DNA from: Burkholderiaceae bacterium
GTDB taxonomy: Bacteria; Pseudomonadota; Gammaproteobacteria; Burkholderiales; Burkholderiaceae_F
NCBI GenBank assembly: GCA_019236735.1
Contig: JAFAIM010000088.1
Span: forward strand, 3,427 to 67,426
DNA: 64,000 nt
Direction of reading: 5' to 3'
Shown: one piece after another, positions 6,760 to 40,896 of the stretch
How positions within the stretch are numbered: the first letter of the stretch is position 1
Layout: the number at the start of each line of letters is the position of its first letter
Notes under the pieces: generated by a model
Told to the model about the DNA's origin: nothing
The model's input: the letters and a program-made list of their open reading frames with translations, nothing else
Databases searched by the model: none
Made by a program: the position numbers and the translations under genes

Positions 6760-7635
6760 ATGAAGCTCCTTTTCAAGTTCAACCTGGTGTTTTTGCTGTT
6801 ATTCGCCCTCGGGATCGCCGTGGCCGGGTTCTTTTCGTGGAATTTGCTGCAGCGCAACGCTCGCGAGGAGATCGCCGAGAACGCCCGGCTGATGATGGCC
6901 AATGCGTTGGCGGTGCGCGCCTACACGGTAGGGCAGATCAAGCCGCTGCTGGACACACAGATGAAGTACACGTTCCTGCCGCAGACGGTGCCCGCTTACG
7001 CGGCCACCGAAGTGGCGAATGCCCTGCGCAAGAAATACCCGGAGTACGACTACAAGGAGGCGATGCTGAACCCGACCAACCCGCGCGACCGCGCGGTCGA
7101 TTGGGAGGCGGACGTCATCAACCAATTCCGTGACGGCCGCGCCAACGGCGAGATCATGGACACACGCCTCACCCCGGGCGGCGGCGGGTCGTTGTTTCTC
7201 GCGCATCCCTTGAAGATCACCGACGGCGCATGCCTGGTTTGCCACAGCACAGTGGAGATCGCGCCGCGGACGATGGTGGACAAATACGGTCCGGCGAATG
7301 GCTTCGGCTGGAATCTGAACGAGATCGTCGGAGCGCAGATCGTCTCGGTGCCGACGTCGGTTCCGTTGGCTCGCGCCGAGCTCGCGTTCCGCACGTTCAT
7401 GATTTCGCTGGCCGGCGTGCTGGTTGGTATCGGGGTGCTGCTGAACCTGCTCCTGTACTGGATGTTCATCCGCCCGGTGACTCGGATCTCCAAGCTGGCT
7501 GACCGCGTCAGCCTGGGTGAGCTGGACGCCCCGGATTTGAACGTGCGCACTCGCGACGAGATCCAGACGCTGGCGGAGTCGCTAGCGCGGATGCGCAAGA
7601 GCATGGCGCAGGCGCTGCAGCTGCTCGGCGGCTGA
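6760..7635 (+). CDS. membrane sensor stub: DUF3365 (Tll0287-like) heme-c domain, TM helix and HAMP domain, with no output domain
   Basis: N-terminal TM helix, then a periplasmic domain with a CLVCH (CxxCH) heme-c site. A second TM helix follows, then HAMP (IRPVTRISKLADRV...EIQTLAESLARMRKSM) and the stop. 291 aa from ATG 6760. Confidence 0.7.
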   Translation: MKLLFKFNLVFLLLFALGIAVAGFFSWNLLQRNAREEIAENARLMMANALAVRAYTVGQIKPLLDTQMKYTFLPQTVPAYAATEVANALRKKYPEYDYKEAMLNPTNPRDRAVDWEADVINQFRDGRANGEIMDTRLTPGGGGSLFLAHPLKITDGACLVCHSTVEIAPRTMVDKYGPANGFGWNLNEIVGAQIVSVPTSVPLARAELAFRTFMISLAGVLVGIGVLLNLLLYWMFIRPVTRISKLADRVSLGELDAPDLNVRTRDEIQTLAESLARMRKSMAQALQLLGG

Positions 7636-7729
7636 CCGTCCCGGAGAGCGAGCCATCGACCCTCTAGCCGAAGTCCACGGACGCCAGCGCCCTCCCCAAA
7701 ACCTCGGGAAGTATCCGATCCTGGGTCAA

Positions 7730-9181
7730 GTGGGCAAGGGCGCGATGGGCGTCGTGTACAAATCATTCGACCCGGTGATCCGCCGGTCGGTGGCGCTGAA
7801 GACGATCCGCAAGGAGCTGCTGGCCGACGAGGATGAGGCTGCGGCATTCGGCGAGCGCTTCCGCAACGAGGCGCGCGCTGCCGGGCGCCTGCTGCACCCG
7901 GGAATCGTCGCGGTATACGAATACGGCGAGGATGAGCAGTACGCGTTCATCGCGATGGAGTACGTCGAGGGCAGCAGCCTGCGGCAATACTTCGAGCGCA
8001 AGGTACGTTTCGAAGAGCGTGATGTGGTCAGCGTGATGGCGCAGCTGCTCGACGCGCTGCAGTACGCACATGACCAGGGCGTCTGGCATCGCGACATCAA
8101 GCCGGCCAACATCATCATCATGAACAACGGCCGCGTGAAAGTGGCCGACTTTGGCATCGCGCGCGTCGAGAGCTCGACGCTGACCCAGGTCGGCGCCGTG
8201 ATGGGCACCCCCGGCTTTATCGCGCCCGAGCAGTACCTGGGCAAGGAAGTCGACCATCGCGTCGACCTGTTTGCAGCCGGCGTCGTGTTCTACGAGCTGC
8301 TCACCGGCGAGCCGCCATTTTCCGGTTCGAAAGAAGGCGTGATGTACAAGGTCTGTCACGAGACCCCGGCACCGCCTTCGGTCGTCTCCGGCAAACCGGC
8401 GCTGGCGCGGTTCGACGGGATCGCGCTGCGTGCGCTGGCCAAACGCCCTCACGAGCGCTACCCGACAGCGGACCGATTCCGCACCGATCTGCTCGACGCC
8501 TACGATCAGCCAGTGAGCCCGACCGTATCGGAACAAACGCTGATCCGGGACGTCGTTCGAGCGGTCGATCCGGGTGAGGGATCTTCGCAGCGCAGTGGAG
8601 CGCGCAAGTCTTCCCGCGGCGGTGCGTCGTCACCATACCGCCCGAGTAGCTCGGCTCCGCACGTCTCGACGATGTCCACGCAGATGCTGGCGGCGGCCGG
8701 TTGGAACGTGGAACAGCTGTCAGCGGTCGAGCGCAGCCTGGCGCATTTTCTCGGGCCGATCGCGCGCTGGATGGTTCGGCGCGCCGCGCGGGAGGCGCCC
8801 GACTTCGCCTCGCTCGTCAATCAACTGTCCGAACAGCTGACAACGCCGTCGGAGCGCTCGAAGTTTCTGCAGCAGAACGCCAGGCTGGCGGCCACCGGAA
8901 ACGGGCCGGCGCGACTGGCCGAGCCGGTGGACGACGACGCCACAGTGATCCCGGGTGCCAACAACTTCCGGCCAACGCAGGGTCCCGGGCCCACTGCCGA
9001 CGACGTCGCACGGGCCGGGAGGCTTTTGGCGGTGCACATCGGTCCGATCGCACAGATCCTGGCGCGGCAAACGGCGACGAGGCCCGGCATCACGCGCGCC
9101 GCGTTCCTGGCGCAACTGGCCGAGGGCCTCAACGACACCGACCGGGAGCGCTTCCTGCGGGACTTCGACCGGTCGCGGTAG
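7730..9181 (+). CDS. Hanks-type Ser/Thr protein kinase with duplicated C-terminal domain
   Basis: GKGAMGVVY glycine loop, HRDIKPANI, DFG and APE motifs. The track start (GTG 7730) lies inside the glycine loop, so the true start is probably upstream (see findings). Confidence 0.85.
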   Translation: MGKGAMGVVYKSFDPVIRRSVALKTIRKELLADEDEAAAFGERFRNEARAAGRLLHPGIVAVYEYGEDEQYAFIAMEYVEGSSLRQYFERKVRFEERDVVSVMAQLLDALQYAHDQGVWHRDIKPANIIIMNNGRVKVADFGIARVESSTLTQVGAVMGTPGFIAPEQYLGKEVDHRVDLFAAGVVFYELLTGEPPFSGSKEGVMYKVCHETPAPPSVVSGKPALARFDGIALRALAKRPHERYPTADRFRTDLLDAYDQPVSPTVSEQTLIRDVVRAVDPGEGSSQRSGARKSSRGGASSPYRPSSSAPHVSTMSTQMLAAAGWNVEQLSAVERSLAHFLGPIARWMVRRAAREAPDFASLVNQLSEQLTTPSERSKFLQQNARLAATGNGPARLAEPVDDDATVIPGANNFRPTQGPGPTADDVARAGRLLAVHIGPIAQILARQTATRPGITRAAFLAQLAEGLNDTDRERFLRDFDRSR

Positions 9182-9227
9182 GCCACGGCCGGCCGCTTTC
9201 GAAGCACCGTCGGAGGAGAAACGGGCG

Positions 9228-9863
9228 ATGGAAGCTCCAGAAAAGAGGGTCTTGCTCGTCGAGGATCACGAGTTGATCCGCCTCGGCACCGGATTGCTGC
9301 TGGAGTCGCTCGGCGACGTGCGCTGCCACATCAAGCTGTGCCGCACGCTCGACGAGGCGCGCGCGGCTTGCCGCGACGAGGGTCCATTTGACTTGACGCT
9401 GCTCGACCTGAACCTGGTCGACTCCAAGGGCCTGCAAGGGTTGCGCACCCTGCGCGACGAGTTCCCGGATTTTCCGATCGCGGTGCTTACGGGTACGCAG
9501 GACGAATTCGTGGTGCGGCAGGCGCAGGCAATGGGAGCGATCGGGTATCTGCTCAAGTCGTGGGCGCCGGAGCAGATCAAAGTCGCCCTGCTCTCGCTGT
9601 TGCGGCCGACTTCCGGATCAGCGGCGCGCGCGACGATCTCGGAACGCTTTCCGAAGCTCGCCGGAACGTCCCACTACGATCGCGTGGCGGAGCTCGGTCC
9701 GCGCCATTTGCAGATCCTCGAACTGATCCTGGAGGGGTGCAACAATCAGGAAATCAGCACGACCACGGGCCTGTCACTGGGTACCGTCAAGAACTACGTT
9801 TCGGCCATCCTGCTGGCGCTGGACGTCGAGAGCCGGGCCCACCTGATCAGCCTGTTCCATTGA
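9228..9863 (+). CDS. LuxR/NarL-family response regulator
   Basis: ATG 9228 preceded by GGAGGAGA. Receiver domain (VLLVEDHELIR, LLDLNL) plus C-terminal LuxR HTH (NQEISTTTGLSLGTVKNYVSAIL). 211 aa. Confidence 0.85.
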   Translation: MEAPEKRVLLVEDHELIRLGTGLLLESLGDVRCHIKLCRTLDEARAACRDEGPFDLTLLDLNLVDSKGLQGLRTLRDEFPDFPIAVLTGTQDEFVVRQAQAMGAIGYLLKSWAPEQIKVALLSLLRPTSGSAARATISERFPKLAGTSHYDRVAELGPRHLQILELILEGCNNQEISTTTGLSLGTVKNYVSAILLALDVESRAHLISLFH

Positions 9864-11605
9864 GCGTTTCCTCGACAGCGGGTGCCGCCGATGGGCGCGT
9901 CGATGCGGAGCTGTACCGAAGTGCATACGTTGCGGATCGACGCGGCGCACTTGCGGGCGTACTGGCCGCGATCTTCGCCGCCTCAGCGCTGCACCAACAT
10001 GGCGCGAGAACCGGTGTATGGGTGTGGGCTGGCTGCTACGTCGCACTAGCGCTTTCTCGCGTGCTGCTGCTCGCGCGGGTCGGCACCCTACCGGTGCGGC
10101 CGCTGCAGCCGCGCACGCTGCGCAAGGCCTGGCTCACACTGCTGACGATATCGGCGGTCATCTGGGGCGCCGCACCGCCATTTTTCCTGTCGCAGCAGGC
10201 AGCGACCGTCGGATTGCTGACAGGCATATGGCTGGCGGCAGCAGGTCTATCGGCTCCACTGGTGGCCGCAGTCAGGCCCGCGATCTACTTGTGGCTGCTG
10301 CCGTCCGTCGTGCCGCTGCTGTTCGCGTTGGCGGCGAAAGGATCCGGCGAAGCGCTGGTGCTGATGGCGCTCGGATCGCTTTTCCTGCTGCTGCTGCTGC
10401 GACTGGTACTGGAACAGAACGACGCCTTGTCCGCCGGACTTGCGGCGCGGTTCCAGAACGAGGATCTGGTCCGGCAACTGCGCACGCAGGTCGAGGTCGC
10501 GGCCCGCGCGAACCAGGACAAGACCCGCTTCCTGGCCTCAGCAGTGCACGACCTGCGACAGCCGCTGCACGCGCTGGGGCTGTTCTGTGCGGCGCTCGAT
10601 CGCAGGCTGCAGGGCATCCCGGAGCATCCGCTGATCAAGAACATGATGTCGTCGATCGAGTCGCTGGAGACCTCGTTCGGAGCGATGTTGGACATCTCGC
10701 GGTTGGACGCAGGGGTGGTGCAGACCGAGGCACAGACTTTCCCAGTGCGCGACCTTTTCCGGCGCCTGTACCAGCAGTTTGGCGGCGATGCCGAAGGGCG
10801 CGACATTTCGCTGCGTTTCCGGGCCGCGCGCCGCCTGGTGCGCAGCGACCCGCAGTTGCTCGAGCGAGTGCTTGCAAACCTGGTGCAGAACGCTCTGCGC
10901 TACACCCGCCGTGGAGGCGTGCTGGTTGCGGCGCGGCGGCGCCGCACCGACGTGGCACTCGAGGTATGGGATACCGGCGTGGGAATTCCGCCCGACAAGC
11001 TCGAAATGATCTTCGAAGAGTTCTATCAGATCGACAACCCGGAACGGGACCGCGGTCGCGGCCTCGGTATGGGCCTGGCGATCGTTCGCAGGCTGTGCAA
11101 CCTGCTGGGGCACTCGCTCGAGGTCTATTCGAAGCCGGGTCTCGGGACGATGTTTCGCGTCGTAGTGCCGGCTGGAAGCCCTTCGGATCCGGCCCAGCCG
11201 GCGCTGGAAGCCGAAACCAGGCCGCCGCGCACCGACGTACGAGTCATCGTGCTGTTGATCGACGACGAGCGGGCGATTCGCGAGGCCACGAGCGAGTTGC
11301 TGCGTCCGCTTGGCGTCGAAGTCTTGACGGCCTCGACGATCGCCGAAGCCGTCCAAGCGGTGCGGCAATCCGATGCGCCGATCGACGTTGTGCTGTCGGA
11401 CTGGCGCCTGCGAGGCACCGAAACCGGGGTGGAGGCGGTGCGGGCGGTACGCAGGGTGTGCGGCGAGTCCACCCCCGCGGTGCTTGTCACCGGTGATACG
11501 TCGGCCGAGGTGTTGACCCTGGCGCACGAAAATGGGCTTGTCGTGCTGCACAAACCGCTCCAACCGCGCGAACTCTTGCGGCTGATCCGGCGCCTGCAGC
11601 GGTGA
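9860..11605 (+). CDS. hybrid sensor histidine kinase (polytopic membrane N-terminus, HisKA, HATPase, receiver)
   Basis: H-box SAVHDLRQPLHAL, N-box LVQNALRYT, G-boxes VWDTGVGIP and GLGMGLAIV, C-terminal receiver (VLLIDDE...VLSDWRL). Proposed TTG 9860 overlaps the regulator stop (ATTGA). Start is uncertain. Confidence 0.8.
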   Translation: MSVSSTAGAADGRVDAELYRSAYVADRRGALAGVLAAIFAASALHQHGARTGVWVWAGCYVALALSRVLLLARVGTLPVRPLQPRTLRKAWLTLLTISAVIWGAAPPFFLSQQAATVGLLTGIWLAAAGLSAPLVAAVRPAIYLWLLPSVVPLLFALAAKGSGEALVLMALGSLFLLLLLRLVLEQNDALSAGLAARFQNEDLVRQLRTQVEVAARANQDKTRFLASAVHDLRQPLHALGLFCAALDRRLQGIPEHPLIKNMMSSIESLETSFGAMLDISRLDAGVVQTEAQTFPVRDLFRRLYQQFGGDAEGRDISLRFRAARRLVRSDPQLLERVLANLVQNALRYTRRGGVLVAARRRRTDVALEVWDTGVGIPPDKLEMIFEEFYQIDNPERDRGRGLGMGLAIVRRLCNLLGHSLEVYSKPGLGTMFRVVVPAGSPSDPAQPALEAETRPPRTDVRVIVLLIDDERAIREATSELLRPLGVEVLTASTIAEAVQAVRQSDAPIDVVLSDWRLRGTETGVEAVRAVRRVCGESTPAVLVTGDTSAEVLTLAHENGLVVLHKPLQPRELLRLIRRLQR

Positions 11606-11744
11606 GGCTTAAGGACATGACTTTGGTCACTAGCGCCCATTGCATGGGTCGCGATCTACTCGAACCGGCGCCTGCGTCACCGGGGCGACCGGGCTCCGAA
11701 GGGGGCGAGCCCTTTCCCGTCACCACGAACGGACGAAATCGAAT

Positions 11745-13136
11745 ATGACCCTCGTATTGCGTGGGCTTTCGCTCAATGAGGAACCGCTGAGCAATCCCCT
11801 GGTCGGGCGCTTTGACGACCGGGGCGGCGAAATCGGCCGATCGGACACCGCGACTTTCACGCTGCCCGATCCGGAGCGCCTGATCTCGCGCGTGCACGCG
11901 CGCATTTCGCATGCCGGGCACGCGTACTGGATCGAGAACGTCAGCGCCGCCGGTCCCATGTTGCACAACGGCCGTCCTCTGAGTTCGGGCATGCGGGTAA
12001 GCCTGGGCGAAGGCGACGAACTGCGAATCGGCGGCTATCGGCTAACGGTGAGTTTCGAGGACGACGAAACGAGCGCAACGATCCTGCGCGGGCGTACGAC
12101 CGCCCAAGCCCCGCCTGCTGGCGCTGGCGCAGCGCGCGGTGCCGCACCGGCGCCTGTGCGCTCGCCCGAGGTATCCGCGCGCAGTGCCCCGCCGGCGCCT
12201 GCCCGTTCGCCCGAGTCGGCCGCGCGACCGTCGGCCTCTCCGAACGTTGCCAACCTTGCGAACGCCGCAAACGTTCCCAACGCTGCCAACGTTGCGCGAG
12301 CCTCGGCGGCCGCGCCATCTCTGCGTTCCGTTGAACCGGCCGCGGCCGCCCCGCCTCTTCGTCCCGTCGAAGCGTCCGAGCCGGCGCCTGTCCAAGCACC
12401 CGCCGCGCCACAGCCGACACCGACCGTTGGGCGCCCGGCGCAAGGCCGCGGCGCCAAGTCCGCGCGCGCGCGGGCGCAAACCGAGTCCTCGTTGGACGCA
12501 GAAGCGCTCTGGCGCGGCTTCCAGGAGGGCGTGGGCGTCGAGCTACCCCTTCCGGGCGGCCCCTCGCCAGAGCTGTTCAGCGCAATTGGGGCGATGCTCC
12601 GAATCGCGGTCAACGGGCTTCACCGTCTGATCGCGATGCGCGCCGTAGCCAAAACCGAAATGCACGCGGACTTGACGATGATTCAAGTGCGCGGCAACAA
12701 CCCGATGAAGTTCGCGCCGGAGCCGGCCGTCGCGCTGAAGATGCTCCTGCAGCCGCCGATGCAAGGCTTCATGTCCGGACCCGCGGCGCTGCGAGATTCG
12801 GTGATCGATCTGCAGTCGCACCAGGTCGGCGTGATGGCGGGGATGCGCGCCGCGCTGGCGGCGGTGCTGGAGCGCTTCGACCCAGTCCAACTGGAGACGC
12901 AGCTAAGCGCCCGCTCGTTCCTGGATACGCTGATGCCGTCGAACCGCCGCGCCAAGCTGTGGGAGCTGTATATCGAGCATGCACGCTCGCTCAGGGATGA
13001 GGCGCAGGACGACTTCGGGCGGCTGTTCGGCGAAGCGTTCCTCGAAGCCTACAACGCTCAGGTGCGGGCGCTGGAGGCGGCCGCGGACGAAGCGGCTGCG
13101 CCGGCTGCGTATCCGGCGGGCCCGAAAGCTCGATGA
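11745..13136 (+). CDS. tagH: T6SS-associated FHA-domain protein TagH/Fha
   Basis: N-terminal FHA (IGRSDTATFTLPDPERLISRVHARI...YWIENVS). An Ala/Pro/Asn low-complexity linker follows, then a conserved TagH-type C-terminal domain. 463 aa from ATG 11745. Confidence 0.8.
   Translation: MTLVLRGLSLNEEPLSNPLVGRFDDRGGEIGRSDTATFTLPDPERLISRVHARISHAGHAYWIENVSAAGPMLHNGRPLSSGMRVSLGEGDELRIGGYRLTVSFEDDETSATILRGRTTAQAPPAGAGAARGAAPAPVRSPEVSARSAPPAPARSPESAARPSASPNVANLANAANVPNAANVARASAAAPSLRSVEPAAAAPPLRPVEASEPAPVQAPAAPQPTPTVGRPAQGRGAKSARARAQTESSLDAEALWRGFQEGVGVELPLPGGPSPELFSAIGAMLRIAVNGLHRLIAMRAVAKTEMHADLTMIQVRGNNPMKFAPEPAVALKMLLQPPMQGFMSGPAALRDSVIDLQSHQVGVMAGMRAALAAVLERFDPVQLETQLSARSFLDTLMPSNRRAKLWELYIEHARSLRDEAQDDFGRLFGEAFLEAYNAQVRALEAAADEAAAPAAYPAGPKAR
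12147..12236 (+). repeat. 45-nt in-frame tandem duplication in the tagH linker
   Basis: ccggcgcct... restarts at 12147 and 12192. Encodes PAPVRSPEVSARSAP / PAPARSPESAARPSA. Confidence 0.75.
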
Positions 13137-13894
13137 TGCTGTCGGTTCGCGTTTCTCAGCGCTCCTGCACCGGCGCCCGGGAGCGCAACGAGGATTGCGT
13201 CGGGGTCGAGCACATCGATGGGCACTGGTGCATGGTTCTGTCTGATGGCGCCGGCGGGCACCGCGACGGGGCGCTCGCATCGCGGCTGGTCGTCGATCGG
13301 GTTCTCGCGGGTTTTCGCAGTCGGCCACCGACCGATGGGCCGGACCTGAGCGAACTGATGCTCGATGCACACGACGGTATTATCGCCGCGCAGCGCGCGG
13401 CAGGCGCCATCGACAGGGCCGGCGCGATGCATGCGACCGCGGTCGTGCTGCTGGTCGACGCCAGCAGCGGCCGGGCGCTATGGGGCCACGTCGGTGATTC
13501 GCGGCTGTACCTGTTGCGCGACCGCGGCATCTCGGCTTTGACGCGGGACGACAGCGTCCTGCAATGGATGGTCGACGCGGGGCTGTGGCGCCCCGGCGAA
13601 CTGTCCAGTCATCCCCAGCGCAACCAGCTGATGGCAGCGCTGGGAGCCGACGAAGGCGTCGAGCCGCATGTCAACGAGGAGCCGTTCGAGCTGCGTCGTG
13701 GCGACGCGTTCGTGCTGTGCAGTGACGGCTGGTGGGGCAGCGTCGCAGACGCGGAGATCGAACGGCTGTGTGCGGGAGCCGCCGGTCCAGACGAGTGGCT
13801 CGACGCGATGATCGCGTGCGCGGTTGCGCGCGCCGATCCGCGCCAGGACAATTTCTCGGCGATCGGCTGCTGGATCGGCGACAGAACCGGATGA
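13133..13894 (+). CDS. PP2C-family Ser/Thr phosphatase (PppA-like)
   Basis: RNEDCVGV, VLSDGAGGH and LCSDGWWG motifs. Its ATG overlaps the tagH stop (ATGA). Confidence 0.85.
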   Translation: MMLSVRVSQRSCTGARERNEDCVGVEHIDGHWCMVLSDGAGGHRDGALASRLVVDRVLAGFRSRPPTDGPDLSELMLDAHDGIIAAQRAAGAIDRAGAMHATAVVLLVDASSGRALWGHVGDSRLYLLRDRGISALTRDDSVLQWMVDAGLWRPGELSSHPQRNQLMAALGADEGVEPHVNEEPFELRRGDAFVLCSDGWWGSVADAEIERLCAGAAGPDEWLDAMIACAVARADPRQDNFSAIGCWIGDRTG

Positions 13895-13949
13895 CGCGGC
13901 TTGATGCAGCGGCCGCCTCCGTCGAGCCTGCCACTTTCTTGCGAACTCC

Positions 13950-15209
13950 ATGCCGATCAAGCCACCTGCCAGCTCCGCCGATTCGGATCCGGACACGCCG
14001 TTCGGCACCCAGCTGTCCGTGCGCGGCGGCGCCGCGCCCGGGCGCGGCGCCTCGCGCCGCGCGGTTACACCATCATGTCCCAATCCGCTGATCTCGGAAG
14101 CCGACGAACTGCTCGCACTGGTGCCACAACTTCGATCGACGGCGCAGATCGCCGATCTTGCGCAGTTGCGGGATCATGTTTCCCTGCTGCTGCAGCGCTT
14201 CGACGAGAGCTTGCGCCAACGCAAAATTGCTGCCGGCTTGTGCCAGAAGGCGCACTTCGTGCTGTGCGCATTGATCGACGAAGTGGTCCAGGCGATGCCT
14301 TGGGGTGCGAACGGCGCTTGGGAGCGGCTCAATCCGCTGGAAGCTGTCGCCGGGGCGAACCCGACCGAAGCGTCGCTGCGCGCGTTCGCGCAAATGGCGA
14401 CCGACCGAACCGGCAGCCGCGAACTGCGCGAGTTGATCTACGTAGCGCTGGCGCTGAGCTTCGACGCGCGCGGACGCATCACCGCGGCAGGAGTCGGGCA
14501 GGCCGACACCATGCGCGCGCGCCTGGCCGATTCGCTGAAACGCAAGGGCGATGCGGCCGCGCGAGCGCTGTCGGCGCGCTGGCAGCCCGTCATCGGGCGC
14601 GCGAGCGCGCTCGGAAGCTGGCTGCCGCTGTGGGTCGGCATCTGCCTGGTCGGCGCCCTTTTGGCGGTGCTGTACGCGTGGCTCACGTTGGCGCTGGCTT
14701 CGCAATCGGATCGCGTATTCGCGCGGATCACCGCGCTGCACCCGCCGATAGCGGCCGCTGCGGCGCCCGCTGCCGCCGTACAGCCTCGCCTGACACCGCT
14801 ACTCGCGCAGGTACAGCCGCGCGGCTTGCAGGTGCGCGACGAGATCGATCGCAGCATCGTCACGCTGGACGACCGGGCGCTGTTCGAGCCCGGCGACGCA
14901 AGCCTGCTGCGGGCTGGCGCCGATTCGCTGCGGCCAGTGGCCAGAGCGTTGCAGGCAGTCCCCGGCCAAGTGGTCGTGATCGGCCATACCGATGGCGAGA
15001 CCGAACGCTCCGCCCGGTTTTCCTCCAACTGGGAGCTGTCGGTTGAGCGCGCGCGTGCCGTGCGCGACGCGCTGCTGCTGTTTGGGGTTCCGTCACAACG
15101 GATGCGCTACGACGGCCGCGCCGATTCCGAGCCGCTCGCAGCGGAATCGACGAATCACACGCTGCCGCATAGCGGTCGAATCGAAATCGAGTTGCTCGTA
15201 GGCCGATGA
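13950..15209 (+). CDS. tssL: TssL/DotU family protein fused to a C-terminal OmpA/MotB-like peptidoglycan-binding domain
   Basis: DotU core (LRELIYVALALSFDARGR), one TM helix (WLPLWVGICLVGALLAVLYAWL) and an OmpA-like end (VVVIGHTDGE...SNWELSVERARAVRDAL). Confidence 0.8.
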   Translation: MPIKPPASSADSDPDTPFGTQLSVRGGAAPGRGASRRAVTPSCPNPLISEADELLALVPQLRSTAQIADLAQLRDHVSLLLQRFDESLRQRKIAAGLCQKAHFVLCALIDEVVQAMPWGANGAWERLNPLEAVAGANPTEASLRAFAQMATDRTGSRELRELIYVALALSFDARGRITAAGVGQADTMRARLADSLKRKGDAAARALSARWQPVIGRASALGSWLPLWVGICLVGALLAVLYAWLTLALASQSDRVFARITALHPPIAAAAAPAAAVQPRLTPLLAQVQPRGLQVRDEIDRSIVTLDDRALFEPGDASLLRAGADSLRPVARALQAVPGQVVVIGHTDGETERSARFSSNWELSVERARAVRDALLLFGVPSQRMRYDGRADSEPLAAESTNHTLPHSGRIEIELLVGR

Positions 15210-18001
15210 GCGTCCGTCCCTGGCAACTGGCTACGCTCGGTTTGACCGGCTTTGGGCTCGCCACATGGTTTGGCGGGCCATTGCTGGCGATCGGCCGCGA
15301 TGTGCCCTTGGCCTCCGCCGGTGCGCGCGTCGCACTGATCGGTGCATTCGCGCTTTGCTACCTGGCCTACCAGGCGTGGGCAGCGAATCACGCCCGGCGA
15401 CGCAACGAAAGCGTGGTCGCGCACCTTGCACCCACTCCGGACGCTGGTGAGACGAGCGAGCTTGCGCAGCTGCGCAAGCGTTTCGCGGACGCTGTCGAGA
15501 CGCTGCGAAGGACTCGTTTCGGTCCGCGCGGCGGAACGTGGTCGTCGCTGTCGTGGAAGTTCGCTCGCCAATATCTGTATCAGCTGCCTTGGTACCTGAT
15601 CGTCGGCGCACCCGGCGCGGGCAAGACGACTGCGCTGTTGAACTCCGGTTTGCAGTTTCCGCTCGCTGGCGAATTCGGCCGAGGCTCCATCAAGGGCGTC
15701 GGCGGCACCCGCAACTGCGACTGGTGGTTCACCGACCGCGCAGTGCTGCTGGACACGGCCGGCCGCTACACGACGCACGAAGCCCACCGCATGGCGGATC
15801 GGCAGGCATGGGAGGGGTTCCTCGAATTGCTCAAGCGGGCGCGGCCGCGCCAGCCGCTGAACGGCGTCCTGGTTGCGGTTTCGATCACCGATCTGCTGGT
15901 GTTCGATCCAATCCAGCGCGCCCAGCACGCAGCGACGCTACGCGCGCGCCTGGACGAAATTCGCTCGACGATCGGCATCCGCCTGCCGGTATACCTGCTG
16001 TTGACGAAGTGCGATCTTCTACCCGGATTCCTGGATTCGTTCTTTCCGCTCGACAAGAAAGCGCGCGACCAGGTCTGGGGCACGACGTTCGACTTCTCTG
16101 CCTCCGAGAGAGGGCGCGCTGCCGATTATTTCGCGGCAGCGTTCGAGCAACTGGTCGCGCGGCTGCACGAGGGCCTGATCGAGCGGATGCAGGCCGAGCG
16201 CGATCCGCAAAGGCGCGCCCGCATTTTCTCGTTTCCACGCCACTTCGCTGCGCTCGGACACCCGCTGGACGACCTGGTGCGACAGGTTTTCGCCGCCGGA
16301 AACTCCTCCGCCCTCGAGGGCGCACCCTGCCTGCGCGGCGTGTACTTCACCAGCGGCACGCAGGAAGGCACGCCGATCGACCGCGCGCTTTCGGCGCTGG
16401 GGCGCGAATTGGGACTGGAGCGGCAGATCCTGCCGCCGAACCAGAGCACCGGTAAGAGCTTTTTCCTTGCAGCCCTTCTGCGCGATATCGTGTTCGCCGA
16501 GTCCGAGATCGCCGGTCGCTCGCCTCGCTTGCAGCGCTGGCGCTCCCGCGCGATCACCGCGTTGCTGGTTGGGTTACAGTGCGGTGGCGTGCTGTTGGCC
16601 GCGAACTGGGCAACCAACTACACGCGCAGCTCCGCCGAAATCGATGAGATCGCGCAAAGCGCACAGGCCGCCGCTGCGCCGGTGCAGTCCCTGCGCACGC
16701 CCTCCGGAAGCGACCCCCGGCCGCTGCTGCCGGCGTTAAACACGCTGCAAGATCTGGTCAAATCGGCGTCTCCGTCGTCCGGAGAATCCGCGCCGCTGGC
16801 GCCATTTCGCCGCCATCAGCGGCTGAAGCTCGACGCGGCGGCCAGGCAAACCTACGATCGCGCGTTGCTGGAAACCCTACTGCCCACAATCGCACGAGCA
16901 TGCGAAGAGCAGATGCGAAGCGGGTCCGATCCGAATCTCCAGTACGAGGCGCTGAAGGCTTACACGATGATGCACGATGCTGCGCATTTCGACGCCGCGG
17001 CGCTGAAGGGCTTCGTGTTGTACGACTGGGACACGGCATTGGAACCTCCGTTGAGCCGGGAGGAACGCACGCAGCTGGCTGCGCACCTGCACGCTCTTGT
17101 CGAGGCGGGAGCTGCGGGCACGATGAGCGGCACCGACTCGCGCCTGGTCGAATCGGTGCGTGCCCACCTCGCCGGGCAACCGGTGTCGCAACGCATTGCG
17201 GCACGCCTGAGGTCGATTCTGAGTGCGAGCTCCTATCCGCCCTTCGAAGTGGCATCGCTCGGGGCCCCCGCCGCAGAACTGTTTGCGGGCAAGGACGGAC
17301 ACTCGGAACCGCGCAGCGTGCCCGGCCGCTACACGGTGCAGGCGTACCGCGACACGGTCCTGAATACGCTGCCAGCGCTGCCGTCGCAATTGGCCGTCGA
17401 GGCAACGTGGGTGCTCGGTGCCGCGCCGCCGGCGAGCGAAAGGGCGGCGACCGGACGGGCTATCGCCGAAGCGCTTGCCTCATATCTGGACAGCTACCAA
17501 CGCAGCTGGTCCACGCTGGTCGATGACCTGCGCTTGAGGCATGCAACAAGCGAGAACGAAGCGATCGCCCAGGCGCAGAACCTTGCGAGGACCGACGGAC
17601 CGCTAGTGTCGCTGCTGCGGCAGATCGTTCAGCAGACGTCGTTGCACAGCACATCCGCGACCACCGCTCTGGGCGATGCTGCTGCACCGCTGGAGGGATT
17701 GGTCGAGGAGCACTTTGCCGCGCTGCGGGACCTGGTGCGAGCAGATAAGAGCGGACGAGCAGGCCTCGATTCGGCGCTCGCCGACTTCCGGTCGGTGCAA
17801 ACGTTACGACCCATGGCAGCTCCTTCGAATGGCTCAGGCGCGCGGGCGCCGCTCGAGGAGCTGGAGCGCATCCGGGCCGAGTCGCGCCGCTTTCCGGAGC
17901 CCGTGCGCACGATGCTGCTGTCGCTGGCGGTGCCACCGGCGGCGCAACAGCCCGGATCGACTGCTGCGCACGCCGCTGCGCCCGGCGCGGCAGCCCGGTA
18001 A
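15206..18001 (+). CDS. tssM: TssM/IcmF family protein, short form (931 aa)
   Basis: Two N-terminal TM helices, Walker A GAPGAGKTT, DTAGRY, a third TM near residue 460 and an ImcF-related region (YEALKAYTMMHD). Its ATG overlaps the tssL stop (ATGA). Confidence 0.8.
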   Translation: MSVRPWQLATLGLTGFGLATWFGGPLLAIGRDVPLASAGARVALIGAFALCYLAYQAWAANHARRRNESVVAHLAPTPDAGETSELAQLRKRFADAVETLRRTRFGPRGGTWSSLSWKFARQYLYQLPWYLIVGAPGAGKTTALLNSGLQFPLAGEFGRGSIKGVGGTRNCDWWFTDRAVLLDTAGRYTTHEAHRMADRQAWEGFLELLKRARPRQPLNGVLVAVSITDLLVFDPIQRAQHAATLRARLDEIRSTIGIRLPVYLLLTKCDLLPGFLDSFFPLDKKARDQVWGTTFDFSASERGRAADYFAAAFEQLVARLHEGLIERMQAERDPQRRARIFSFPRHFAALGHPLDDLVRQVFAAGNSSALEGAPCLRGVYFTSGTQEGTPIDRALSALGRELGLERQILPPNQSTGKSFFLAALLRDIVFAESEIAGRSPRLQRWRSRAITALLVGLQCGGVLLAANWATNYTRSSAEIDEIAQSAQAAAAPVQSLRTPSGSDPRPLLPALNTLQDLVKSASPSSGESAPLAPFRRHQRLKLDAAARQTYDRALLETLLPTIARACEEQMRSGSDPNLQYEALKAYTMMHDAAHFDAAALKGFVLYDWDTALEPPLSREERTQLAAHLHALVEAGAAGTMSGTDSRLVESVRAHLAGQPVSQRIAARLRSILSASSYPPFEVASLGAPAAELFAGKDGHSEPRSVPGRYTVQAYRDTVLNTLPALPSQLAVEATWVLGAAPPASERAATGRAIAEALASYLDSYQRSWSTLVDDLRLRHATSENEAIAQAQNLARTDGPLVSLLRQIVQQTSLHSTSATTALGDAAAPLEGLVEEHFAALRDLVRADKSGRAGLDSALADFRSVQTLRPMAAPSNGSGARAPLEELERIRAESRRFPEPVRTMLLSLAVPPAAQQPGSTAAHAAAPGAAAR

Positions 18002-18058
18002 AGTGTCGCGACGCACTGGCGCTCCGGAGGCCGCACAGACTGATAGGCAGACAGGCAG

Positions 18059-18715
18059 ATGCTCCCCCACTCGGCCGTCTCCTGGCCGGCGCAGGCCGGC
18101 TGGTTCGGAAAGATCCCAGCCTTGGGCGATTTTGCGGGACGCAGGCTGCCGCCGGGATTCGTCAGCACTTGGGATCGTTGGCTCTCCGATGGGCTACATG
18201 CCGCACAGCAGGCGCTCGGCGCGCGCTGGCTCGAGTCGTACAACAGCGCGCCGCTGTGGCGGTTCGGACTCACACCGGAGCTGATCGACGAGCAATACTG
18301 GGGCGGCGTACTGATGGCGAATGTCGATCGGGTCGGACGCCAGTTCCCTTTGACGATCGCTGCGCCAGCGCCGCAGGCGGCGTGCATCTATAGCCGCAAA
18401 CTCGAGGGATGGATTGTAGCGGCGCTGCGTGCCCGGCGTCCCGACTGCGATCCGGAAGCGCTGGAAACTGCACTGGCTGCGGCTGCCGAAGCTGAGCGGC
18501 TTGGTGCGAGATCGGACACTTCCGACGCTGCCGACACTGCCGACATCGCCGACACCGGTCGCGACGCACTACGTGAGGCGCTCGCAGCTGCCGGCCGCGG
18601 AATCAGCCTATGGTGGCCGTGGCGCGCAGGCAGCGCGAACGAGCACGAAACTGTCTGGAGCGTCGACGGCCTGCCGCGCGCCGACCAGTTTGTCAGGCTG
18701 TTCAGCTGCGGTTAG
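18059..18715 (+). CDS. tagF: T6SS-associated protein TagF (ImpM/DUF2094)
   Basis: Hallmark N-terminal GWFGKIPALGDF motif, then RLPPGFVSTWDRWL. 218 aa. Confidence 0.8.
   Translation: MLPHSAVSWPAQAGWFGKIPALGDFAGRRLPPGFVSTWDRWLSDGLHAAQQALGARWLESYNSAPLWRFGLTPELIDEQYWGGVLMANVDRVGRQFPLTIAAPAPQAACIYSRKLEGWIVAALRARRPDCDPEALETALAAAAEAERLGARSDTSDAADTADIADTGRDALREALAAAGRGISLWWPWRAGSANEHETVWSVDGLPRADQFVRLFSCG
18512..18556 (+). repeat. five tandem 9-nt units in tagF
   Basis: tcggacact tccgacgct gccgacact gccgacatc gccgacacc, encoding SDT SDA ADT ADI ADT. Confidence 0.85.
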
Positions 18716-18752
18716 CCGGCTGTTGCTGCAGCCGCACCAACACCGCGGGTGT

Positions 18753-19571
18753 TCAACTGCCCGGATTGTTCTTCGGGACGACGGTCCAATGCTCGGTCGG
18801 CGGCGAGTCTCCGAGCACGACGGTACCGCCCTCGCTCCACGGCGCGTGCCGGTAATCGAACGCCTTGGCGATGCGCGGCTTGACGACCTCGAAGAACGGC
18901 GAGGCGTCGAAATCGCGTGGAACGTACAGGCTGTAGTGGCGGATGCGCCAAAGCTCGCGCGCCTCCTCCTCCTGCTCCGCTTCTACCTCGCGCCTTCGCG
19001 AGATGACCGGCAAGATCGGATAACGCACCGAGTCGAACGCCTGTGCGATCAGCGTTGAACAGATCGCCCGCGTGGGATCGCCGCTGCCGAAGGCGATCAT
19101 TCGGCGCCTCAGGCGCGCCGGCAGCGGGATCGGAAACAGATAGCGCGCCAGGTCCAACACGTTCTTCAGGTCGTAACGGTGGCCCAAACGCTGGAGCGCA
19201 TACTGGATCAGGCGCTCGCGATCCTCGGCAGTCAGTTTCACCGGCCGACAGATTCGCACGCGAAAGCGGCCGTAGGCCGATAGCGGCACCGCGCGCACCC
19301 CCTCCAGGACATCGGCCTCGACCAGTGTCGTAGGCTCTCCGGCTACCTGCGGAAGCTCGGGCCTGACGCCGACGAACAGCGCGGCGTGCGACCACATCGA
19401 CTGCGTCAGGTACTTGACCGCGGCGCTCATCCGCGTGTTGCCTTCGACCAGCAGCACGTCTCCGGGCGCGAGCGTGTCGGCCACCAGGCGCGCATCCGTG
19501 CTGGTGCCGCTGGGGCGGGCGACCGGGTTTGTCAGATAAGTGGCAAGGGCTCGCCCGAGGGACTCGAACAT
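18753..19571 (-). CDS. YiiX/YaeF-like permuted papain (NlpC/P60 superfamily) hydrolase
   Basis: PGDVLLVEG...SHAALFVG followed by a catalytic-Cys context (RAICSTLIAQAF). Family assignment is by eye. Confidence 0.5.
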   Translation of the reverse strand: MFESLGRALATYLTNPVARPSGTSTDARLVADTLAPGDVLLVEGNTRMSAAVKYLTQSMWSHAALFVGVRPELPQVAGEPTTLVEADVLEGVRAVPLSAYGRFRVRICRPVKLTAEDRERLIQYALQRLGHRYDLKNVLDLARYLFPIPLPARLRRRMIAFGSGDPTRAICSTLIAQAFDSVRYPILPVISRRREVEAEQEEEARELWRIRHYSLYVPRDFDASPFFEVVKPRIAKAFDYRHAPWSEGGTVVLGDSPPTEHWTVVPKNNPGS

Positions 19572-19686: not shown

Positions 19687-20208
19687 TTAGCGCGCGCAAA
19701 TGCGCGGATCGAGCTGAGACTCCATCTCCGGATGGCCGTAGCTCGTGCGAACCAGGCGCGTGTCCGAGTCGAACAGCACGTCGAAGCGCGCCGAATGGTT
19801 GAACTCGTCGCAGTAGCGCCACTCCCAGACCAGCTCGCGGCGGGCCGGGAAATTGCTGGTCCAATGCGGCACCGACGGGCCCAGGATGCGCAGCACGTCC
19901 TGTTCGGTCATTCCCCGCTCGATCCGGTAGAACGAGGATGAGTCCATCACGTTCTGGATGCGCACGAGCCGGCCCGACGCATCCACGTACACCATGTACG
20001 ACTGAAAGCCTGCCGGACCGCGCGGATAGGAAAGCTGAACCGAGTGGTCCGCGTCGACCCACTGCATTGCCGGCTCACCCATCGACGTGCGGACGTCCGC
20101 CAGCGTGGACCGTCCCGGCACCAGCGAGGAGCCGTCGCCAAAGCTCGCGCACCCCGCCGCCAGGCATAGCGCGCTGGTCCAGAAACCTGATCGAAGCGGG
20201 CGGCGCAT
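19687..20208 (-). CDS. lipoprotein with two BamE/SmpA_OmlA-like motifs
   Basis: Lipobox LCLAAGC. RGMTEQDVLRILGPS and a weaker first copy, STLADVRTSMGEP. Confidence 0.6.
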   Translation of the reverse strand: MRRPLRSGFWTSALCLAAGCASFGDGSSLVPGRSTLADVRTSMGEPAMQWVDADHSVQLSYPRGPAGFQSYMVYVDASGRLVRIQNVMDSSSFYRIERGMTEQDVLRILGPSVPHWTSNFPARRELVWEWRYCDEFNHSARFDVLFDSDTRLVRTSYGHPEMESQLDPRICAR

Positions 20209-29965: not shown

Positions 29966-30463
29966 CTACGGTGCGGACGAACCTCCGAGCGCGGCGACGA
30001 TGTGCGGCGGCGCCTGCACCAGTTCGATCAGCACGCCCTCACCGCACAGCGGCGCCTCGGCGCTGGGGCGGGGATGGATGAATATCACATCATGCCCAGC
30101 CGCTCCGCGACGGATGCCGCCGGGAGCGAACCGCACTCCCTGCGCAGCAAGCCACTGTACTGCAGCGCGCAGATCGTCGACCCAAAGGCCGATGTGGTTG
30201 AGCGCAGGTTCGTGCACCGCTGGGCGCCCCTGTGGATCGATCGGCTGCATCAGATCGATCTCGCACCGCGCCGCCCCGTGTCCGACTGAGGCGATGTCTT
30301 CGTCGACGTTCTCTCGTTCGCTGCGGTAGCTGCCTTCGAGCGCGAGACCGAGAAGATCGATCCAGAGACGGCGAAGCCGCGTCTTATCAGCGCTGCCGAT
30401 GGCGATCTGCTGCACGCCCAGCACGCGAAACGGCCGCACCCCGGGATCAGCCGCCTGCGCCAT
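29966..30463 (-). CDS. VOC/glyoxalase-family protein
   Basis: LGVQQIAIG...[11 protein letters not shown] pattern of paired beta-alpha-beta-beta-beta modules. Confidence 0.6.
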
Positions 30464-30863
30464 CGCGCCGCTCCACGATCGGGTAACGTCGCGCTAGTTC
30501 TGCCAGCAGGGACTCGAACCCGTCGGCAAGTCGAAGCGCGAGCTCGAAGGCATCGGTTTGACCCTCGCGCGCGAAAGCCTCAGCCTTCTTCGCAAGTTCC
30601 GCCAGCTCGCCAGATTCCAGATAGCCGGCCATGCTCTTGAGCTTGTGGGCGAGCGAACTCACTGCTACCAGATCGGCGCTTTGCGCGGCCTCGCGAATTT
30701 GGCCCGGCAGCTCCTTCTGGGTCGTCAACGTGGTCTTGGCGAGTTTCTCGATGAATGCCGCGTCACCGCGGAAACGATTCAGCAGAGCGGGCCAGTCGAT
30801 CAGTTGCCCTTCAGACGTGATCTTTTGCCCGTCTCGTTGCACGGTCTTTCGCTCCCCCACCAT
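30447..30863 (-). CDS. Hpt (histidine phosphotransfer) domain protein
   Basis: [13 protein letters not shown] phospho-His motif in a helical protein of about 135 aa. Confidence 0.6.
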
Positions 30864-34758: not shown

Positions 34759-35024
34759 CTGAGTTCCCGCTCTGGTGACCAGTGGAGTGCGCGAAGTACC
34801 GTAGTGCCGATCCGCGATTTGTCGATCGCCGTACAGCGCGAATCGCGATGTTGATCGTCGTACAGTGGCCGCCGCCGTATAGCGGGGTGATGGACAGGAT
34901 AAGGGCTGCATTCTCGGAGATCGTCTTGCTCAAAAGCGAGGGGAAAAACGACGGCTGTGTTGCCGTTGCCGAAGCTGAAGTTGCCTGGAAGGTGGAGATC
35001 GCGAAAGCGGCACGACGTGCCATT

Positions 35025-35132
35025 CGAGAAATCAAGTACTTGCGAAAATGCGCGGACGCAGCAAGAGCCGGACGGGGAGTGGGGCCATCCCGCTCCGCGG
35101 CGCTCGCGGCAGAATGTGGTGGGTCGCGACCG
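35025..35132. repeat. intergenic repeat family, copy A (23-nt core cgagaaatcaagtacttgcgaaa at 35025-35047)
   Basis: The core is identical to 35759-35781 and contains the 10-nt palindrome caagtacttg. The distal part (35100-35132) resembles 47811-47848. Confidence 0.7.
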
Positions 35133-35182
35133 AAGAAGTCCGAGCTCACATTTCAACGGGAGGATGGGACGTGGAAGCAAAG

Positions 35183-35500
35183 ATGGTCACCACCGCACTG
35201 GAGCTGGCAGGCTACGAAATTGTCGAAAACGTCGGCATCGTTCGAGGAATCGTCGTCAGGTCCCGTTCAATCGTCGGCAGCTTTTTCGGTGGTCTGCAAA
35301 CAATCATCGGGGGCAATATCACCGTTTACACGACCATGTGTGAGAAAGCACGCAAGGATGCGTACAAGATCATGTGCGCGCAGGCCGAAGGCAATAAAGC
35401 AAATGCGATTGTGGCGATGAAGTACGACGCCACCGAGGTCATGCGCGGTGTAACGGAAGTGCTTTGCTACGGGACTGCTGTCGTGGTCAAGAAGAGGTGA
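35183..35500 (+). CDS. YbjQ/UPF0145-family protein
   Basis: [30 protein letters not shown]...GGNITVYT...AIVAMKYD is typical of YbjQ. 105 aa. Confidence 0.75.
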
Positions 35501-35502
35501 CT

Positions 35503-35718
35503 ATGAAATCCACTCTCGTTGGAGGCGTCGCCTGTTTCATTGCTGCTGTCTTCGTGGCTCTCATTCAGATCTGGCTAGACGCGTTCAGCCCCGCTGTCTT
35601 CGTGAAGATCGAAATGACCATCGCCGCGATCTTTGCCGTCCTCGTCGCCATATGGTTCACACGAAAGGAGTACAGAGACTACAAGCGCCAACAAAGCAAT
35701 ACTGCCCTGGATGAGTAG
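35503..35718 (+). CDS. small two-TM membrane protein
   Basis: 71 aa, beginning 3 nt after the ybjQ stop. Two hydrophobic helices. No recognisable family. Confidence 0.45.
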   Translation: MKSTLVGGVACFIAAVFVALIQIWLDAFSPAVFVKIEMTIAAIFAVLVAIWFTRKEYRDYKRQQSNTALDE

Positions 35719-35758
35719 CGAGCCTCGCTAACCGAGGGGTGCTGGCCAGCGTACGGGC

Positions 35759-35845
35759 CGAGAAATCAAGTACTTGCGAAATACGCCGACGCGGCAAAAC
35801 GCGAAAAGCGTGGGAAGAGCGCTGCAAAATTCCCGACGGCGGGCC
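35759..35845. repeat. intergenic repeat family, copy B
   Basis: 23-nt core at 35759-35781. The downstream part (gctgcaaaattcccgacggcgg) resembles copies at 46111-46170 and 47744-47800. Confidence 0.7.
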
Positions 35846-35872
35846 GTATCCGGCGCTCACAATGCAGGTCGG

Positions 35873-36118
35873 ATGAAACAGATTCCTTGCCCCTGCTGTT
35901 CCGACACGCTCTACGAATTGCGGAACATTTCCGGCTCGCACGCCGGCTGGGCCCTCTCGAAAGATTCGACGCGCTTGCGCTCGGACCGACAGGGCTATTA
36001 CATGAAATGTCCGCACTGCTCGAAGCGAGTTGTGTTCTCGACGGTGTCGACTGTGGTGGGAGTCGGTTTCGGTATGGCGCCCAAGCAGATCTGTTTGGAG
36101 TGCAAAGACTCCGACTGA
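35873..36118 (+). CDS. small zinc-ribbon protein (CPCC...CPHC...CLEC)
   Basis: 81 aa from ATG 35873 with three Cys pairs. No family recognised. Confidence 0.4.
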   Translation: MKQIPCPCCSDTLYELRNISGSHAGWALSKDSTRLRSDRQGYYMKCPHCSKRVVFSTVSTVVGVGFGMAPKQICLECKDSD

Positions 36119-36126
36119 TTCTGTCC

Positions 36127-36270
36127 GTGCGACCCGTGCCAGCGACCGCAGCCGCGCAACTCGATCGAGCCAATAACTTCAACCTGCTGCGCCTGGTTCT
36201 TGCTTCGGCGGTACTGCTCACGCACAGCTATACGACCGTGAGCGCTCCGGAGCCGCTCGTTCAGCTTATC
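36127..36270 (+). pseudogene. N-terminal fragment of an acyltransferase-3 (OafA-like) gene
   Basis: NNFNLLRLVLASAVLLTHSY matches the family's N-terminal signature. The similarity then stops and the frame runs on into the next gene. Confidence 0.4.
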
Positions 36271-40887: not shown

Positions 40888-40896
40888 CGATTGTCG

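Follow-up and report, generated by a model that had tools for sequence, protein, structure and literature searches.

Positions 11745-18715 of a 64,000-nucleotide stretch of Burkholderiaceae bacterium DNA (assembly GCA_019236735.1, contig JAFAIM010000088.1) hold five co-directional genes on the forward strand, encoding TagH/Fha, a PP2C phosphatase, TssL, TssM and TagF. We refer to the whole stretch as the window and give the coordinates of the module as window positions. The block is probably a reduced member of a family of modules that derive from type VI secretion systems (T6SS), recognised by a separate clade of TssM (clade M), and would act as a Ser/Thr phospho-switch at the inner membrane that has become detached from a Tad pilus locus, rather than as one part of a split T6SS. 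The original prediction for this DNA had offered two possibilities, a split-off part of a T6SS or an autonomous unit. The second is supported by membership of clade M, by the loss of tssJ and of the TssJ-binding domain of TssM and by purifying selection, and no T6SS is contiguous with the block.

The five gene identities proposed in the original prediction are borne out by Pfam and NCBIfam. TagH/Fha (11745-13136, +) comprises an N-terminal FHA domain (Pfam FHA, 4.6e-09), an Ala/Pro-rich linker and a T6SS_FHA_C domain (1.8e-52), and scores 255 bits on TIGR03354 (cut-off 120). The Ser/Thr phosphatase (13133-13894, +; PP2C_2, 6.7e-14) is PppA-like. TssL (13950-15209, +) is of the long form, with a cytoplasmic DotU domain (2.5e-34), one transmembrane segment (residues 227-245) and a periplasmic peptidoglycan-binding OmpA domain (6.7e-15). 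It reaches 120 bits on TIGR03349, above the cut-off of 90, and 106 bits on the OmpA-domain model TIGR03350, below the cut-off of 140. TssM (15206-18001, +; 931 aa) matches IcmF-related_N (1.1e-88) and IcmF-related (1.2e-58) and scores 770 bits on TIGR03348 (cut-off 388), and TagF (18059-18715, +; TagF_N, 4.3e-36) scores 115 bits on TIGR03373 (cut-off 41). Thus TagH, the DotU domain of TssL, TssM and TagF all exceed the curated cut-offs for their T6SS families. The predicted ATGA start/stop overlaps, of the phosphatase gene with fha at 13133 and of tssM with tssL at 15206, are found in the sequence, as are GAPGAGKTT, which is the Walker A sequence of TssM, and GWFGKIPALGDF in TagF.

The five genes are real, but the conserved neighbourhood in relatives is larger than the five-gene block originally proposed. 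We count the unit as nine genes (approximately 6760-18715), because the four genes upstream are also syntenic in relatives. The first (6760-7635, +) encodes a membrane sensor in which two transmembrane segments flank a periplasmic Tll0287-like domain (8.2e-38) with a CLVCH haem-c (CxxCH) motif, followed by a HAMP domain (1.3e-08) and no output domain; this gene is syntenic in loci L001, L002, L006, L093, L099 and L105. The second (7730-9181, +) is the Hanks-type Ser/Thr kinase that had been placed about 2.5 kb upstream of the block. It is predicted to be soluble, with no transmembrane segment, and carries a C-terminal DUF8082-type repeat region behind the kinase domain (Pkinase, 1.7e-52); DUF8082 is also recorded in its orthologs. 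Its true start probably lies slightly upstream of 7730, since the hidden Markov model (HMM) match begins at 7694. The third and fourth genes encode a response regulator with REC and GerE/LuxR helix-turn-helix domains (9228-9863, +; Response_reg, 1e-17; GerE, 5.1e-10) and a hybrid histidine kinase (9860-11605, +) that is NahK/ErcS-like, with about five transmembrane segments by transmembrane scan and HisKA, HATPase and REC domains by Pfam. The hybrid kinase scores 343.9 bits on NCBIfam NF041832, under the cut-off of 400, and its TTG start overlaps the stop codon of the response regulator (TTGA).

The window contains none of the firing apparatus of a T6SS, as had been noted originally. Among the approximately 55 open reading frames (ORFs) of the window scanned with Pfam, no T6SS core family other than TssL and TssM was found, and HMMs for TssA, B, C, E, F, G and K, Hcp, VgrG, ClpV, TagJ, PAAR-like proteins and TssJ gave zero matches in a six-frame translation of the 64 kb. 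These models were built from canonical relatives and match the loci from which they derive (TssK in 71 of 73).

The placement of TssM relative to canonical TssM proteins, proposed earlier as a check, separates the window from ordinary T6SS loci. A protein search with TssM retrieved relatives at 63-86% identity in two forms, one of about 930 aa without the C-terminal IcmF_C domain and one of about 1160 aa with it. Clustering of the TssM matches resolves two groups, clade M (45-100% identity to the window protein) and a canonical group of Rhizobacter/Variovorax type (about 41%), which are also separated by HMM scores and by signature, TKCDLLPGF in clade M versus TKCDLL[A/S]GF in canonical TssM. 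By clustering, HMM score, signature and a rough neighbor-joining tree, the window TssM falls in clade M. We assembled a clade M set of 37 non-redundant metagenomic loci (436 kb in total, with flanks of at most 10 kb) from a metagenome scan with a clade-M-specific segment and six TssM contig look-ups, and compared it with 73 canonical loci of at least 15 kb each. Genes in the fetched loci were called with our own heuristic and HMMs. A further scan of a genome collection with a TssM alignment used universal TssM motifs; among the matches listed, all were canonical (about 41% identity), and these served as positive controls.

The gene content of the two groups differs consistently. TssK, which stands beside tssL and tssM in 71 of the 73 canonical loci, is found in none of the 37 clade M loci nor in the window. 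The same complete absence from clade M and the window holds for Hcp (34 of 73 canonical loci), TssC (28), TssB (25), TssA (22), TagJ (20), TssF and TssE (12 each), VgrG (10), TssG (7) and ClpV (6), and also for PAAR-like proteins. Neither the window nor any clade M locus therefore has the canonical T6SS-i arrangement, in which TssA-TssM occur together with, or near, Hcp, VgrG and ClpV. Instead, clade M loci share the order response regulator-histidine kinase-Fha-PP2C-[TssJ]-TssL-TssM-TagF. All 19 clade M loci that are 12 kb or longer have both the response regulator and the hybrid histidine kinase, as against 3/73 and 12/73 canonical loci, respectively. The window shows the same trait, with the LuxR-type regulator and the hybrid kinase directly upstream of fha and no TssK.

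Within the canonical group, the locus of Rhizobacter sp. Root1221 (L090:6686-16210) has the order tssJ-tssK-tssL-tssM-tagF-ppkA, and the 10 kb to each side of it contain no gene for sheath, Hcp or baseplate. Of 73 such loci, 23 have MltA upstream, and split canonical T6SS loci appear to be common in this group. The statement in the original prediction that accessory and membrane genes are interleaved with other core genes in canonical loci is therefore only partly true. In close canonical relatives, tssJ-tssK-tssL-tssM-tagF-ppkA often form one block that is free of sheath genes within 10 kb.

The window module has lost the parts that would reach the outer membrane. At 931 aa, TssM is about 230 aa shorter than normal, and IcmF_C (PF06744), the TssJ-binding C-terminal domain, was not found in it by Pfam. 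The protein covers model positions 3-924 of the 1168 in TIGR03348. In alignment it ends just past a conserved RRFPEPVR.MLL motif, beyond which full-length relatives run for a further 225 aa or so. Since this end coincides with the start of the C-terminal domain, and tagF begins 57 bp later, the shortening is a clean domain deletion rather than a frameshift. No TssM structure was detected in PDB sequence searches that used the window TssM, one full-length relative or a profile as the query, and the extent of the missing domain was judged from Pfam and NCBIfam model coverage. A periplasmic portion of about 460 aa remains. TssJ itself gave no match in the window even at E ≤ 10, nor does the window contain a TssJ-like ORF; the gap between the phosphatase gene and tssL, where clade M loci may carry tssJ, is 65 bp. 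In the canonical T6SS, TssJ and the C-terminal domain of TssM belong to the trans-envelope channel formed by the TssJLM complex.

These losses form a series in the relatives of the window. Where both traits could be read, all 13 loci with TssJ also have IcmF_C, whereas of the nine without TssJ three have IcmF_C and six, including the window, lack it. Loss of IcmF_C is thus restricted to TssJ-less loci (6/9 versus 0/13). Locus L099 represents a further step: its TssM (L099:9197-11478, also protein P0048) is 564 aa long and consists of the N-terminal transmembrane segments and the cytoplasmic NTPase domain, with tagF following after 27 bp. The "envelope-spanning export device" of the original prediction does not fit these observations, with the outer-membrane arm gone and a sister variant retaining just 564 aa of TssM. 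Several species-level lineages have retained the reduced architecture.

The nine genes are not decaying. All are under purifying selection, with dN/dS of 0.06-0.27 against locus L006 (TssM 87% identical) and 0.08-0.38 against L001 (69%); values by gene include 0.06-0.16 for the haem sensor, 0.08-0.10 for PP2C and 0.13-0.20 for TssM. The kinase retains its VALK, HRD, DFG and APE motifs, the phosphatase its metal-binding motifs (ED, DGxGG, GDSR, SDG and DN) and Fha its phosphothreonine-binding FHA motifs (GR..SxxH..NG), while Walker A, DTAGR and TKCD are invariant in TssM. In addition, the N-terminal tail of TssL carries a D-x-x-T-x-F-G-T motif that is conserved within the subclade of the window and absent or unalignable in remoter clade M members. 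From this pattern of conservation, its threonine is a candidate phospho-acceptor.

The recurrent neighbor of the module in clade M is a Tad/Flp pilus locus, which adjoins it in eleven loci (L002, L004, L005, L008, L092, L110, L111, L113, L117, L118 and L130). These Tad loci encode Flp-like pilins, TadG-like and TadE proteins, a TPR protein, RcpC, a secretin, CpaF, TadB/C and DUF192, and their CpaF ATPase has an FHA domain at its N terminus. The junctions between module and Tad locus are of three different types, which suggests that the linkage has been kept through rearrangements and is not a single frozen arrangement. Models for TadE, Flp-like, TadG-like, TadB/C and secretin proteins match none of the 73 canonical loci; CpaF and TPR models match two and one of them, respectively, and no other Tad model matches any. 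Two conserved proteins with no Pfam family also occur in the extended neighborhood, one (u327) encoded upstream of the haem sensor (L002:97-1080) and one (u279) inside the Tad locus (L002:17794-18633), and a tandem pair of approximately 230-aa proteins, likewise conserved and without a Pfam family, lies downstream of tagF in L004 (14146-15519).

Linkage to Tad follows the presence of TssJ. Tad genes adjoin 10 of 11 TssJ-containing loci with readable flanks and, as far as the flanks reach, none of the 8 loci that lack TssJ (Fisher p = 1.2e-4, uncorrected for phylogeny), and neither HMMs nor Pfam match any Tad-family gene in the 64 kb of the window. In a rough neighbor-joining tree, the state with TssJ and adjacent Tad genes is spread over deep branches, and at least four branches have lost TssJ. 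At junctions of the type seen in L004, the Tad operon ends with DUF192, and pseudogene fragments of this gene lie between the kinase and response regulator genes of L093 (2975-3251) and L099 (3355-3500), with 87-91% DNA identity to the intact L004 gene. These scars indicate that the DUF192-response regulator junction of the Tad-linked form was disrupted in L093 and L099. On this sequence comparison, the window represents a derived, reduced state of the Tad-linked module.

Among the known systems closest to the module is the threonine-phosphorylation switch of the T6SS membrane complex, as in the PpkA/PppA/Fha1/TagF pathway of the Pseudomonas aeruginosa H1-T6SS and that of Agrobacterium tumefaciens. 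The window shares with it a TagH/Fha that contains T6SS_FHA_C, a PP2C phosphatase and TagF, whose functional motifs are all intact, together with a long-form TssL carrying OmpA and a TssM with a Walker A motif, and its genes are likewise translationally coupled. The logic linking TagF to Fha and kinase to phosphatase in the T6SS pathway has been summarized (PMC6653060). In contrast to that pathway, the window lacks TssK, sheath, tube, spike, baseplate and TssJ, and its TssM lacks IcmF_C. Its kinase is soluble and carries DUF8082 repeats, whereas PpkA of the canonical relatives consists of Pkinase and DUF4384 domains; with no transmembrane segment, it is also not a transmembrane kinase of PpkA type with an extracytoplasmic sensor domain. 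The window unit further differs in including the response regulator-hybrid histidine kinase pair and the haem sensor.

The bare observation of such a block is not new, and the original prediction went too far in calling it undescribed, because partial loci with IcmF, DotU, FHA, Ser/Thr kinase and phosphatase genes and no other core genes have already been described in Pantoea and Erwinia ("T6SS-2", PMC3235180; "PA T6SS-3", PMC3942780). These conserved loci comprise about eight overlapping genes in about 9 kb, resemble a single operon and were described without an assigned function. The window matches them by composition only. According to its published description, the Pantoea/Erwinia locus arose by partial duplication of the resident enterobacterial T6SS-1 and shares about 52% identity with its paralogs (PMC3235180). 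Judged by this published description, its origin is likely to be independent of clade M. In the portions of the published accounts available to us, no Tad linkage, response regulator-histidine kinase pair, TssJ loss or IcmF_C loss is reported for that locus.

Two other systems offer partial parallels. The IcmF/DotU (IcmH) pair of the Legionella Dot/Icm type IVB secretion system (T4BSS), whose icmF/dotU region is noted in PMC2660368, is a precedent for a TssM/TssL-type pair serving another envelope machine. By sequence, however, the window proteins are of T6SS type: on IcmF_IVB (cut-off 1000) TssM reaches just 94.5 bits, as against 770 on TIGR03348, the 75.7 bits of TssL on DotU_IVB (cut-off 50) lie far under its 272 bits on the T6SS DotU model, and Pfam scans of the window ORFs found no Dot/Icm families. 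The Kil system of Myxococcus xanthus is a Tad-like machine for contact-dependent killing, in which the KilF ATPase is fused to an FHA domain and for which a T6SS-like phospho-signalling cascade upstream of assembly was proposed (PMC8460266). The Tad loci adjacent to clade M modules encode CpaF with an N-terminal FHA domain, as in KilF, a likeness in domain architecture. In contrast to clade M, no TssL, TssM or TagF is reported for Kil (PMC8460266), and the window itself lacks Tad genes.

We therefore considered how such a module might work, by analogy with the T6SS threonine-phosphorylation pathway. In the A. tumefaciens model, the signal passes from PpkA through threonine-phosphorylated TssL to Fha, with the TssM NTPase. 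The ancestral form of the clade M module would have comprised the response regulator, histidine kinase, Fha, PP2C, TssJ, TssL, TssM and TagF together with the Hanks kinase, beside a Tad/Flp locus with FHA-CpaF. Its platform would have reached the outer membrane through TssJ, next to a Tad machine with an FHA-bearing motor; as this motor has an FHA domain of its own, the same phospho-marks could have gated it. In the window lineage, the module no longer adjoins Tad genes, and tssJ has been shed along with the part of TssM that binds TssJ. This would leave a platform in the inner membrane, held to peptidoglycan through the OmpA domain of TssL, plus the periplasmic stub of TssM. The soluble kinase, possibly gated by the haem-c/HAMP sensor, may phosphorylate threonine in the N-terminal tail of TssL, in Fha or in both. 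Fha would dock by its FHA domain on the phospho-mark at the TssL-TssM NTPase platform, TagF would restrain Fha, and PP2C would reset the switch. As its output, the switch may recruit or activate partners that bear an FHA domain (a Kil-like Tad motor, should the genome encode one elsewhere), signal through the co-transcribed hybrid histidine kinase and LuxR-type regulator, or do both; the present data do not distinguish the two.

More tentatively, the whole clade of modules may have been recruited to serve Kil-like Tad machines with FHA motors as a platform in the envelope under phospho-regulation, which would be a third context for TssL and TssM after the T6SS and T4BSS, and the window lineage may have gone further, to a signalling device of the inner membrane only. 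The literature searched contains no description of a TssJLM/Fha/TagF module in Tad loci, nor of selected stepwise loss of TssJ and the TssM C terminus, nor any paper that brings Tad and CpaF together with TssM and TssL, which is not proof of novelty. The two papers that mention Tad, Flp, IcmF and DotU jointly are unrelated.

One alternative is an ordinary split T6SS, in which a cluster elsewhere in the genome would encode the sheath, baseplate and spike and the block would supply the membrane complex and their post-translational control. All five proteins belong to T6SS families, with scores that exceed the curated cut-offs or come close to them; tssJKLM-tagF-ppkA forms a separate sheath-free block (10 kb) in close canonical relatives such as Rhizobacter Root1221; split loci are documented in Xanthomonas fragariae (PMC6653060); and our view of this genome is that of the window. 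We nevertheless consider a split T6SS improbable, given the complete absence of TssK from clade M, the deletion of tssJ and of the TssJ-binding domain of TssM, with nearly the whole periplasmic part of TssM missing in the sister variant, and a recurrent clade M neighbor that is a Tad locus and not a set of T6SS genes. It is less probable still, to the point that we give it very little weight, that the block is decaying and without function, left behind after the deletion of a T6SS or of a Tad-linked module. The progressive loss of TssJ, then IcmF_C, then most of TssM (L099) and the pseudogene scars nearby in relatives speak for a remnant, and the comparable Pantoea/Erwinia locus has been called potentially non-functional, with more gene loss in some Erwinia species (PMC3235180). 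Against decay stand nine intact ORFs with low dN/dS in comparison with both relatives, invariant catalytic motifs, clean excisions of domains and genes with translational coupling kept, and the retention of the same reduced architecture in several species-level lineages.

A further alternative is a stand-alone sensor of envelope, redox or danger signals, in which TssL, TssM, Fha, TagF, PP2C and the kinase serve as the input for the hybrid histidine kinase and LuxR-type regulator, with no link to a pilus or to secretion left. The regulator pair is co-located and co-directional with the module in 19/19 loci, an output-less haem-c Tll0287/HAMP sensor lies upstream, the window has neither an outer-membrane arm nor adjacent Tad genes, and the homologous P. 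aeruginosa pathway senses membrane perturbation (cited in PMC8460266). However, no mechanism is known that couples phosphorylation of Fha or TssL to a histidine kinase, a response regulator-histidine kinase pair beside an operon is more commonly its transcriptional regulator, and a conserved periplasmic domain of about 460 aa in TssM, together with the NTPase, is not obviously needed for pure signalling. We regard such a sensor as unlikely, though the strongest of these alternatives.

Several points also weigh against the interpretation that we favor, a reduced, Tad-detached phospho-switch of clade M. The absence of T6SS and Tad genes applies to the 64-kb window, and either locus may lie elsewhere in the genome. 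In the window and in L006, housekeeping genes stand immediately upstream, and it is for these two alone that the absence of Tad genes is solid; the flanks of L001, L093, L099 and L105 stop at the upstream u327 gene. The trait correlations carry no phylogenetic correction and the neighbor-joining tree is rough, the clade M members found come from uncultured organisms only, and the phosphorylation targets and the output are ones that we infer by analogy. Finally, an FHA-CpaF Tad locus without the TssJLM module exists in Ideonella sp. DXS29W and in another metagenome-assembled genome (MAG), so the Tad machine can do without the module, and the two could be linked by regulation or by synteny alone. 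The module is not an obligate part of Tad but an addition in some lineages.

The Ideonella sp. DXS29W locus (L171:1-16071), from a cultured isolate, and L172 each represent a Tad-like locus with FHA-CpaF, an OmpA protein, TadG-like, RcpC, secretin, TadB/C and DUF192. This strain is a possible experimental entry point for FHA-CpaF Tad systems.

The module is flanked by methylmalonyl-CoA mutase/pcc (propionyl-CoA carboxylase) genes on one side and an RND efflux operon on the other, and Pfam thus confirms the flanks as first described. A terminator-like hairpin directly 3′ of tagF (18746-18763, +) is weak evidence for the end of the operon, since terminator-like sites in the region are not more numerous than expected from shuffled sequence; a promoter scan of the region found no promoter-like site. 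Two genes on the opposite strand follow. The first, a convergent gene (18753-19571, -), encodes a YaeF/YiiX-type permuted papain-like amidase (Peptidase_C92, 1.1e-10) and is a conserved neighbor, syntenic in L001, L006, L102, L105 and L107; its membership in the module is uncertain. The second (19687-20208, -) encodes a BamE-like lipoprotein with the lipobox LAAGC and a weak Pfam match (BamE, 1.4e-4). It is found downstream in the TssJ-less loci (the window, L001, L006, L093, L099 and L105) and is missing at the same position in L004, the sole TssJ-containing locus with a comparable flank. Its membership is likewise uncertain, and the cases are too few to call it a replacement for TssJ.

Two further proposals concerning the module were rejected. 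A stand-alone Hpt protein (30447-30863, -) was considered as a phosphotransfer partner for the hybrid histidine kinase and set aside, as its gene is not syntenic in relatives; it adjoins Glyoxalase_4 and FlK thioesterase genes, and those two are syntenic with the module in relatives. An anti-phage defense system was also dismissed, as PADLOC returned only generic kinase matches (PD-T4-6 and mad6) and weak domain-level matches for PP2C (PDC-M21C), the histidine kinase (PDC-M43B), the response regulator (CARF) and the OmpA domain of TssL (ZorB/MotB-like), with no match for TssM, TagF, Fha or the haem sensor. The Hanks kinase (7730-9181) matches the PD-T4-6 model PDLC04061 over residues 1-417, past the catalytic domain, with 324 bits. 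This match probably reflects the breadth of kinase models, and the C-terminal similarity is without explanation.

Elsewhere in the window, a 951-aa ORF (32056-34911, -) has no real family match, with weak coiled-coil-type matches at its C terminus, and lies where AT skew is strongly negative (-0.24) and GC skew is negative too. G+C content falls from about 0.66 to about 0.61 over 34000-50000. There, the interval from 45.4 to 49 kb contains short ORFs only, with a PIN-domain gene (46292-46705, -) and no family matches, and may be a mobile or toxin-antitoxin-rich segment. A cluster at 37557-43284 encodes PEP-CTERM and HupE/UreJ proteins, a PPIase and a DUF3604 protein of 795 aa. A nitrile hydratase alpha/beta pair is encoded at 52329-53964 (-).

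If our interpretation is correct, the membrane complex of the T6SS and its threonine-phosphorylation switch would be a transferable unit that is under selection without the contractile apparatus. The outer-membrane arm, formed by TssJ and the C-terminal domain of TssM, would be removable stepwise while the core of NTPase, TssL, Fha and TagF stays, and the serial reduction in clade M would be a natural dissection of signalling from channel-forming parts. As the module genes bear the name "type VI secretion system", automated pipelines would over-call T6SS in such MAGs. The linkage of the module to Tad loci with an FHA-ATPase would also provide a testable candidate for the upstream cascade postulated for Kil-type Tad machines.

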